A stretch of 64,000 nt of DNA, from positions 240,188,001-240,252,000 of the forward strand of contig OZ024743.1 of NCBI GenBank assembly GCA_964016885.1, given 5' to 3'. Positions 29,630 through 31,323 of the stretch are shown here, one piece after another. The DNA comes from Eledone cirrhosa. Taxonomy: Eukaryota. The first letter of the stretch is position 1; each line of letters opens with the position of its first letter. Both the position numbers and the translations under genes were made by a program. The notes beneath the pieces are model-generated. The model was given only the letters and a program-made list of their open reading frames with translations, had not been told where the DNA came from and did not search any database.

Positions 29630-30590
29630 GTATTTTATATATATATATATATATATATACATACATACATACATATGTGTGTATGTGTATATATACATAT
29701 ATATATATATATATATATATATATATATATATATGTGTGTGTGTGTGTGTGTGTGTGTGTGTGTGTGTGTATGGGTACGCTTCTATACATATATATGTGC
29801 GTCAGGTGTGTGTATACACAAGTATAAACATAATATATATATACACGTATAAATATACATGTATACATATATATATACATATATACACATATACATATAT
29901 ACACATATAGGTATGTACATACAGGTATATATATATACATATATATATATATACATTTATATATATATATATATACATATATATATACATATATACATAT
30001 ACATATAGATATATACGTATGCTTACATACATATACATATAAATATATACATATAAATACATATACATATATATATATAAACATATACATATATATATAT
30101 ATATACATATACATATATATATATACATACACATGTATATATATACATAAACATATATATCTACACACACATATATATATATACGTATATATATATATAT
30201 ACATATATATGTATATACATACACACACACATATATATACACATATATACAGACATATATATATATATACACACATATATATACATATATATACATATAT
30301 ATATATACATAAATATATATATGTATATATATGTGTATATATATATATATATATATATATATATATATATATATATATATATATATATATACACACACAC
30401 ATATATATATATATACATTTATATACACACATATACATACATATACATATATATATATATACACATATACATACACATATATATATGTATGCATATGTAT
30501 ATATAGATATGTGTGTGTGTGTGTATGTATATATATATAAGTATGCGCACGTACACACACATATATATACATATATATATATATATATAT
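29630..30590. repeat. Compound (TA)n/(CA)n/(TG)n low-complexity tract
   Basis: ~1 kb of mixed dinucleotide repeats. Confidence 0.95.
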
Positions 30591-30663
30591 AAAGAAAAAG
30601 AGATGAAATCGAAAATGCAACCGAAGTCTTATTTTTTTTTTAAATATATATATTTATTTGGTT

Positions 30664-30701
30664 CCTTTACCGGTTTCGCAGTTCTTCTGCTTTTCAAAAG
30701 G
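30664..30701 (-). ncRNA. Minimal hammerhead motif, U3-A8 core variant
   Basis: Mirror copy of 30885-30922. Confidence 0.65.
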
Positions 30702-30884
30702 TGAGTTGAGATGGAGGGTCTGTGGTTTTTCTCACATCTGGTTGGTCTCTGAATGTTACTTGTTTTATATGGAAAAAGTGGCTCGAAATTCCTGGAATTT
30801 CGAGCCACTTTTTCCATATAAAACAGGTAACATTCAGAGACCAACCAGATGTGAGAAAAACCACAGACCCTCCATCTCAACTCA

Positions 30885-30922
30885 CCTTTTGAAAAGCAGA
30901 AGAACTGCGAAACCGGTAAAGG
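30885..30922 (+). ncRNA. Minimal hammerhead motif, U3-A8 core variant
   Basis: CCTT-TTGAAAA-GCAG aagaa CTGC-GAAAC-CG-GTA-AAGG; perfect stems I and II, palindromic ACCGGT stem III. Confidence 0.65.
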
Positions 30923-31323
30923 AACCAAATAAATATATATATTTTTTTAAAAAATAAGACTTCGGTTGCATTTTCGATTTCATCTCTTTTTCTTTATACT
31001 TTCACTCGTGTAGGACACCTCGGTTATTTTTCATTTTGTAAAAAAAACCTCACTTTCTAATATATATATATATATATATATATATATATATATATATATA
31101 TATATATATATATATATGTATATATATATATATATATATATATATATATATATACATATATATACAGATAGGTGAAATTATGTATATATATATATATATA
31201 TATACATATATATACAGATAGGTGAAATTATGTATATATATACATAAAGGTGAAATTAAAATCCAGCGAAACTGGTCAAAGATGTAACTAACGGTTTTCA
31301 TCAAAGGGTACAGCCTGGCTGAA

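Follow-up and report, generated by a model that had tools for sequence, protein, structure and literature searches.

A hammerhead-bearing palindrome in Eledone cirrhosa is most probably an inverted pair of 3' ends of a young Penelope-like element

In a 64,000-nt stretch of Eledone cirrhosa DNA (the window; contig OZ024743.1, positions 240,188,001 to 240,252,000), a palindrome carrying a hammerhead motif in each arm is most probably an inverted pair of 3' ends (pseudo-LTRs, or pLTRs) of a young and abundant Penelope-like element, inserted into (TA)n by a stop of reverse transcription followed by fold-back of the cDNA, and in this element a U3-A8 pair likely replaces C3-G8 in a ribozyme that would cleave tandem transcripts as a dimer. 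The locus adds a further case to a class already described, a U3-A8 Penelope hammerhead in an ordinary insertion, from a family that is very large and young. The initial annotation had overlooked the end of the Penelope-like element, and the U3-A8 core is no surprise, such cores having already been published by Cervera and De la Pena (2014, PMC4209133) and by Perreault et al. (2011, PMC3088659). Our literature searches, outside which lie Przybilski and Hammann 2007, Nelson and Uhlenbeck 2008 and Martick and Scott 2006, returned no published report on this lineage. The insertion is made up of the following parts, in window coordinates:

29833..30587, no strand: (TA)n-rich microsatellite left of the insertion
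30588..30792, minus strand: left arm, a tailless pLTR copy, inverted and 5'-truncated, whose end at the (TA)n target reads ...TTTATA
30664..30701, minus strand: minimal type I hammerhead motif of the left arm (descriptor scan), U3 at 30697, predicted cleavage after 30668
30782..30804, no strand: fold-back centre, CTCGAAA-9 nt-TTTCGAG, compared with L001, L007, L012, L039 and L046
30794..30998, plus strand: right arm, the 3' end (pLTR) of a Penelope-like element, from its identity to the flanking repeats of L107-L110
30885..30922, plus strand: minimal type I hammerhead motif of the right arm (descriptor scan)
30999..31060, plus strand: 62-nt one-sided tail, carried by 52 of the 87 arms scored in L001-L067, with overlapping loci left unmerged
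31061..31240, no strand: (TA)n-rich microsatellite right of the insertion

The palindrome is 411 bp long, runs from 30588 to 30998 around a centre at T30793 and is interrupted only by one mismatched pair (30760/30826) and one 4-nt slip in an A/T run; the palindrome of 410 bp reported earlier for 30588..31060 is real, and 31060 is the end of the tail. A descriptor scan of the window that left positions 3, 7 and 8 free found the identical motif in both arms, CCTT-TTGAAAA-GCAG-AAGAA-CTGC-GAA-ACCGGT-A-AAGG, with U3 at +30889 and -30697, which bears out the earlier reading of a UUGAAAA core in each arm. As one arm is an inverse copy of the other, the two count once. In the right arm, the motif consists of stem I (CCUU/AAGG), U3 at 30889, A8 at 30894, stem II (GCAG/CUGC), G12 at 30909 and a palindromic ACCGGU at 30912-30917, with cleavage predicted after A30918 (GUA).

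The arm is a repeat, with 94-100% identity in the 40 copies scored of 647 candidates, and longer copies extend upstream into a GIY-YIG frame. The window arm is 96-98% identical to the repeats that flank reverse transcriptase-endonuclease (RT-EN) frames of 769-775 aa in L107-L110, and L034 presents an inverted pLTR without tail, then an RT-EN region, then a pLTR with tail. In the parent protein, Pfam placed GIY-YIG above its cut-off (E 3.7e-6) and RVT_1 below it (E 4.9e-6), and GIY-YIG lies C-terminal to the RT, as in EN+ Penelope-like elements; homologues at E<=1e-30 numbered 716. The linker before GIY-YIG, CGRSNCGTC in L107-L110, fits the CX2-5CxxC pattern, and by this linker, a trait common to Nematis too, the sequence of the parent fits the Neptune type. 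RT, linker, GIY-YIG and pLTRs are all shared with the Neptune/Nematis EN+ elements described by Craig et al. (2021, PMC8557442). All 150 EN copies scored were 97-100% identical, many of them in open frames of 775 aa, which indicates a young family.

The arrangement of the copies is also that of Penelope-like elements, for which PMC8557442 describes insertion into microsatellites, a tail on one side only and an adjacent copy that is inverted and 5'-truncated. In our family, 5'-truncated pLTRs occur both direct and inverted, and among the first 100 motifs listed on contig C1 there were 23 divergent pairs closer than 5 kb, 2 convergent pairs and 1 tandem pair. The tail, at 62 nt, is longer than the 30-40 nt given for Neptune/Nematis-type elements in PMC8557442, and in tandem elements it runs straight into the upstream ORF. 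Tandem element L109 has the motif in both repeats, 4,679 nt apart, and in such an element the first ATG follows the predicted cut site by 169 nt.

The motif fits a minimal type I hammerhead, as U4, G5, A6, N7, A9, G12, A13, A14, A15.1-U16.1 and H17 are all present and the 3-8 pair of the motif at 30885-30922 is a Watson-Crick U-A instead of the C-G of the strict consensus. G10.1-C11.1 and the palindromic stem III are present in the family motif (GCAG/CUGC, ACCGGU). An extra base between A9 and 10.1 and a stem II of 7-8 bp are missing, but they are likewise missing in the C3-G8 relatives L158, L161, L163 and L164, so that the family motif fits the variant with a small palindrome. Stem I comprises only 4 bp (3 bp in the older subfamily), and we found no extension of it.

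The closest published counterpart is Schistosoma mansoni Cercyon, where U3-A8 minimal hammerheads gave about 1,300 matches to a dedicated descriptor and where supplement file 2 contains a UUGAAAA core in an element-linked family (PMC4209133). Like Cercyon as described there, the window family has a minimal type I hammerhead in its pLTRs, with U3-A8, a palindromic stem III, pairs on opposite strands (about 100-700 bp apart in Cercyon) and thousands of solo copies. Unlike Cercyon, it has a stem II of 4 bp, no extra base after A9, a 6-nt palindromic stem III and A as H17, and its copies are nearly uniform, with U3-A8 throughout the family. The Penelope hammerheads of Drosophila, rotifers, shrimp and mosquitoes share with it a small palindromic helix III, the lack of a stable monomer and a predicted action as dimer, according to the same source; they differ in that the core here is U3-A8, and the sister family described below adds A13C. 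Perreault et al. (PMC3088659) report the same compensatory pair, as natural covariants from C3-G8 to U3-A8 that are said, on the authority of another paper, to be active in vitro; the passage on these covariants contains no test of a minimal Penelope motif.

To tabulate positions 3 and 8 within the family, we searched the genome (3.0 Gb, 1,796 contigs) with the pattern CTT-N-TGA-N-N-A-GCAGAAGAACTGCGAAACC, which passes over diverged copies, and obtained 11,885 exact matches and none to the reversed pattern, so that the match is not due to chance. U3-A8 was present in 11,769 of these and C3-G8 in none, and the family consensus is U3-A8, not the C3-G8 that would have contradicted the initial annotation. 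All 66 matches with a base other than U at position 3 retained A8, and all 50 with a base other than A at position 8 (24 G, 15 C, 11 T) retained U3. The free position 7 deviated from A in 51 matches, and positions 8 and 7 did not differ in a binomial test for selection within the family (50 versus 51, p=1.0), a test that gauges decay after insertion and not selection on source copies. Positions 3, 7 and 8 vary alike, and the family copies give no evidence of selection. Loci picked by their EN protein had the motif in 29 of 30 cases, in the pLTR, on the sense strand and downstream of the ORF; all 34 exact motifs in them were U3-A8-A13, and in the public contigs positions 3 and 8 showed no further variants.

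Comparison across related elements yielded a different picture. Starting from an alignment of 37 RT-EN proteins, we scanned 124 related RT loci, 80 of 368 from metagenomes and 44 from genome bins, with positions 3 and 8 left free. A relaxed descriptor identified 41 sense-strand motifs (36 once identical repeats were merged), and the 3-8 pair was Watson-Crick in every one of them (34 CG, 5 UA, 1 AU, 1 GC); the controls gave 1 match in reversed sequence (C-U) and 3 on the minus strand (2 CG, 1 AA). A stricter scan of the same loci gave 29 matches, 28 of them Watson-Crick, and none in the reversed control, the lone exception being a U-G motif that lies in an ORF and has a disrupted GAAA. MAFFT misregisters motifs as short as these. 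The covariation seen in these sequences is real support for selection on the 3-8 pair, and the selection proposed earlier thus stands across families (41/41) and has no support within the family (66, 51 and 50 deviations among 11,885 at positions 3, 7 and 8). Such selection would act on structure, from which we infer catalysis.

The RT tree had 39 rows: 36 came from the 124 loci, each distinct motif being represented once, and the others were L109, L141 and L152; L235 was dropped as doubtful, and L238 was added from a motif called by eye. It is a quick IQ-TREE search without bootstrap, from stitched fragments and restricted to rows with a called motif. It places the window family together with its sister in a clade (SH-aLRT 99) within a 15-row group (SH-aLRT 100) that holds 11 CG rows, and this nesting among C3-G8 relatives suggests that U3-A8 is likely derived here and arose once, before the two families split. 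The position and architecture of the motif are homologous in the C3-G8 relatives, and ACCGGU is identical in four close ones (L158, L159, L163 and L165). UA rows sit in five separate places of the tree, suggesting that U3-A8 likely arose repeatedly elsewhere as well, always as a double change; the tree hints at repeated origins, although the Schistosoma element lies outside its 39 rows.

Three further observations were made among these loci. A3-U8 and G3-C8 cores lie beside Penelope-like RTs at L201:1969 and L207:117, on metagenome contigs and in one copy each, so that all four Watson-Crick pairs occur. At L167:1868, a C3-G8 motif has a 6-bp stem I and a 6-nt palindrome but no stem II, A9 and G12 being separated by 3 nt, and it may be a damaged copy. 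Some contigs with a Penelope-like RT (L237-L280) were assigned to genome bins of bacteria such as Campylobacteraceae, SUP05 and Stappiaceae, and they are likely host DNA binned with symbionts.

The sister family is represented in the window by one further cassette:

55234..55660, no strand: decayed inverted pLTR pair with tail, sister family, with G3 at +55472 and -55386

The initial annotation had listed this cassette as related and as having A8. A8 is indeed kept, and both arms have G3, not U3; position 13 is C or U, and stem III is disrupted. The motif of the family, TTT-TTGAAAA-GCAT-WAGAA-ATGC-GCA-ACCGGT-A-AAA, has 4,691 exact genomic matches, and the first 100 listed comprise 100 with U3, 99 with A8 and 98 with C13. 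Loci picked by the upstream UTR have C13 in 28 of 28 sister-family motifs (29 matches, one of which is the motif of the window family), and the sister family hence lacks the A13 required of an active hammerhead, a base that PMC3088659 places in the strict core. Its stem I is a 3-bp A-U helix, and the stems of the two families differ by compensatory changes, from G-C to U-A in stem II and from C-G to U-A in stem I. The true parent of the sister family was reached through its upstream UTR; its RT-EN fragments are about 45-60% identical to the window family, with frames mostly broken in the loci seen (L068-L097, L127-L156). RT frames beside sister-family arms in L116 and L124 were rejected as parent, being unrelated elements of 24-39% identity.

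It is conceivable, and we regard it as a long shot, that the change from G8 to A8 removed the need for A13 and that U3-A8 with A13C makes the sister motif an active hammerhead with a GCAA strand. The relaxed descriptor required A13, so that its CG motifs could not have revealed C13, and scans that allowed C13 gave no convincing case in CG relatives. Our paper search found no A13C hammerhead, and Lunse et al. (RNA Biol 14:1499) or supplement file 1 of PMC4209133 may list A13 variants. If the idea were true, the sister A13C would be a natural epistatic core variant, and CG/A13, UA/A13 and UA/C13 on the same ACCGGU stem would form a ready-made test series that would also address whether cleavage is necessary for Penelope-like elements in the first place.

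The main alternative accepts the element and holds that its ribozyme is a relic, with U3-A8 fixed in the ancestor of both families, little or no cutting, and spread that proceeds regardless. The sister family speaks for this, as its spread to 4,691 matches with A13C (98 of the first 100 listed, and all 28 UTR-picked motifs) and a 3-bp stem I suggests that an intact core may not be needed, and so do the variation within the window family, which bears no selection signal, and the Naiad elements, which thrive without canonical hammerheads (PMC8557442). A scan of all double mutants of a type III hammerhead (PMC9901934) reports that only the G3-C8 swap rescued the 3-8 pair, U3-A8 not being rescued, and that other mutants remained low; the earlier statement that U3-A8 is tolerated thus depends on context. 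Against a relic, the window family has kept the other core bases, G10.1-C11.1, the palindrome and GUA at a protein divergence of about 45% between the two families, and the 3-8 pair is kept in 41 of 41 related motifs. On balance we consider a relic improbable, and the role of hammerheads in EN+ Penelope-like elements is described as still open in PMC8557442. This question becomes easier to test with a uniform, recently active family, a sister whose core has changed further, and C3-G8 relatives that have stem III in common with it.

In our preferred reading, two motifs would form stem III by base pairing between their self-complementary ACCGGU sequences, and cleavage after GUA would then release RNA of unit length. 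Stem III cannot close in the monomer, and predicted pairing of ACCGGU fits the dimer model of PMC4209133. The isolated motif has a predicted fold of -7.5 kcal/mol, and two ACCGGU strands are predicted to pair at -8.3 kcal/mol; a cofolded motif pair gave an extended duplex and not a clean two-hammerhead fold. For Penelope minimal hammerheads, PMC4209133 describes weak cleavage in vitro, dimers included. The ends of genomic copies lie 80 or 142 nt beyond the predicted cut site, and the template would consequently be a tandem or circular RNA, as was proposed in PMC4209133.

The inverted pair itself likely arose from reverse transcription that broke off at about 270 nt, whereupon the cDNA would have snapped back at a 3'-UTR hairpin, which became the palindrome centre. 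This hairpin is imperfect in the native 3' UTR and a perfect palindrome in the window, which is expected if the cDNA folded back. The end of the left arm is also seen as a loose end at (TA)n in public contigs, and ends of its type occur in 24 of the 87 arms scored (L001-L067, overlapping loci not merged).

Another reading takes the palindrome itself as the mobile or functional unit, a MITE-like element or a hairpin-RNA cassette in which two hammerheads act jointly. The near-perfect arms of 205 bp and the frequency of short palindromes (15 of 23 divergent pairs, among the first 100 motifs listed, lie within 150 nt) would be compatible with this. However, the pairs share no fixed centre and their spacing ranges from 44 to 4,287 nt, the tail is found on one arm only, and both arms are fragments of an element that has ORFs. 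Moreover, the motifs lie on opposite strands, so that no single RNA contains both in sense, and a transcript of the palindrome from either strand is predicted to fold into one hairpin (-352 or -348 kcal/mol), in which the antisense arm, made first on either strand, would sequester the motif. We consider this reading largely refuted and very improbable, and the predicted folds suggest that the locus is likely a dead-on-arrival by-product.

Chance resemblance or an assembly fold-back artefact is almost certainly not the explanation, as, even though the motif is AT-rich and has no Rfam match, perfect palindromes can arise artefactually and the locus is known from the assembly alone, the arms differ at real sites and carry the two natural ends of the family, and C3-G8 relatives share the homologous position and architecture.

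The full copies of the parent element have two overlapping frames (4/4) and not a single ORF; at L109:1232-4695, and also in L107, L108 and L110, an upstream frame of 409 aa, for which Pfam gave no match, overlaps the 775-aa RT-EN frame in the -1 register. The heptamer T TTT TTA lies in the upstream frame of all four full copies, and T TTT TTA/G was found in 4 of 7 relatives tested (L157, L158, L159 and L238; 40-46% identity), where the upstream frame closes 12-21 codons later and the RT frame opens 0-12 codons earlier. The predicted fold downstream of the slippery site is weak (-9.4 kcal/mol over 90 nt). Judging from these frames, the parent likely has a conserved programmed -1 frameshift that would yield one protein. 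The overlap at a slippery heptamer is a difference from the Neptune/Nematis type, and the Fig. 1 legend of PMC8557442 mentions a frameshifted ORF1. Together with the sister A13C, the likely frameshift is the part most worth bench testing.

With respect to detection, an Rfam search of the window at gathering score gave no match, and none of the hammerhead families reached E<=10 on the palindrome arm, which extends the earlier claim that CUGANGA searches would miss the motif. The motif copies in this genome that escape CUGANGA-based screens and Rfam number at least 16,500. A generic CTGANGAGC-N6-16-GCGAAACC search gave 9 scattered matches. Rfam also missed canonical motifs in a third inverted pair:

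20851..21666, no strand: inverted pair, arms 20851-21123 and 21394-21666 (273 nt), with a CUGAUGA motif in each arm

These motifs, at +21520-21601 and from -20997 leftwards, combine a long stem II with a palindromic stem III of 10 nt, and the pair probably represents a third Penelope-like family. A UUGAACA candidate at +62362, antisense within a hAT-like transposase region and without palindromic stem III, was treated as chance.

The remainder of the window contains other repeats. Positions 1-20000 hold a long array of a 14-bp satellite with strong strand skew. A broken non-LTR retrotransposon, unrelated to the palindrome, adjoins the (TA)n behind the tail (31240-35012) and comprises a CCCH-like frame, an endonuclease-like piece and RVT_1 (E 4.7e-13). 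Nested broken pieces of RTE-like LINEs, one with Exo_endo_phos_2, occupy 46871-50900, and a broken hAT-like transposase, labelled from its translation and having no Pfam match, lies on the minus strand at 62002-63587.
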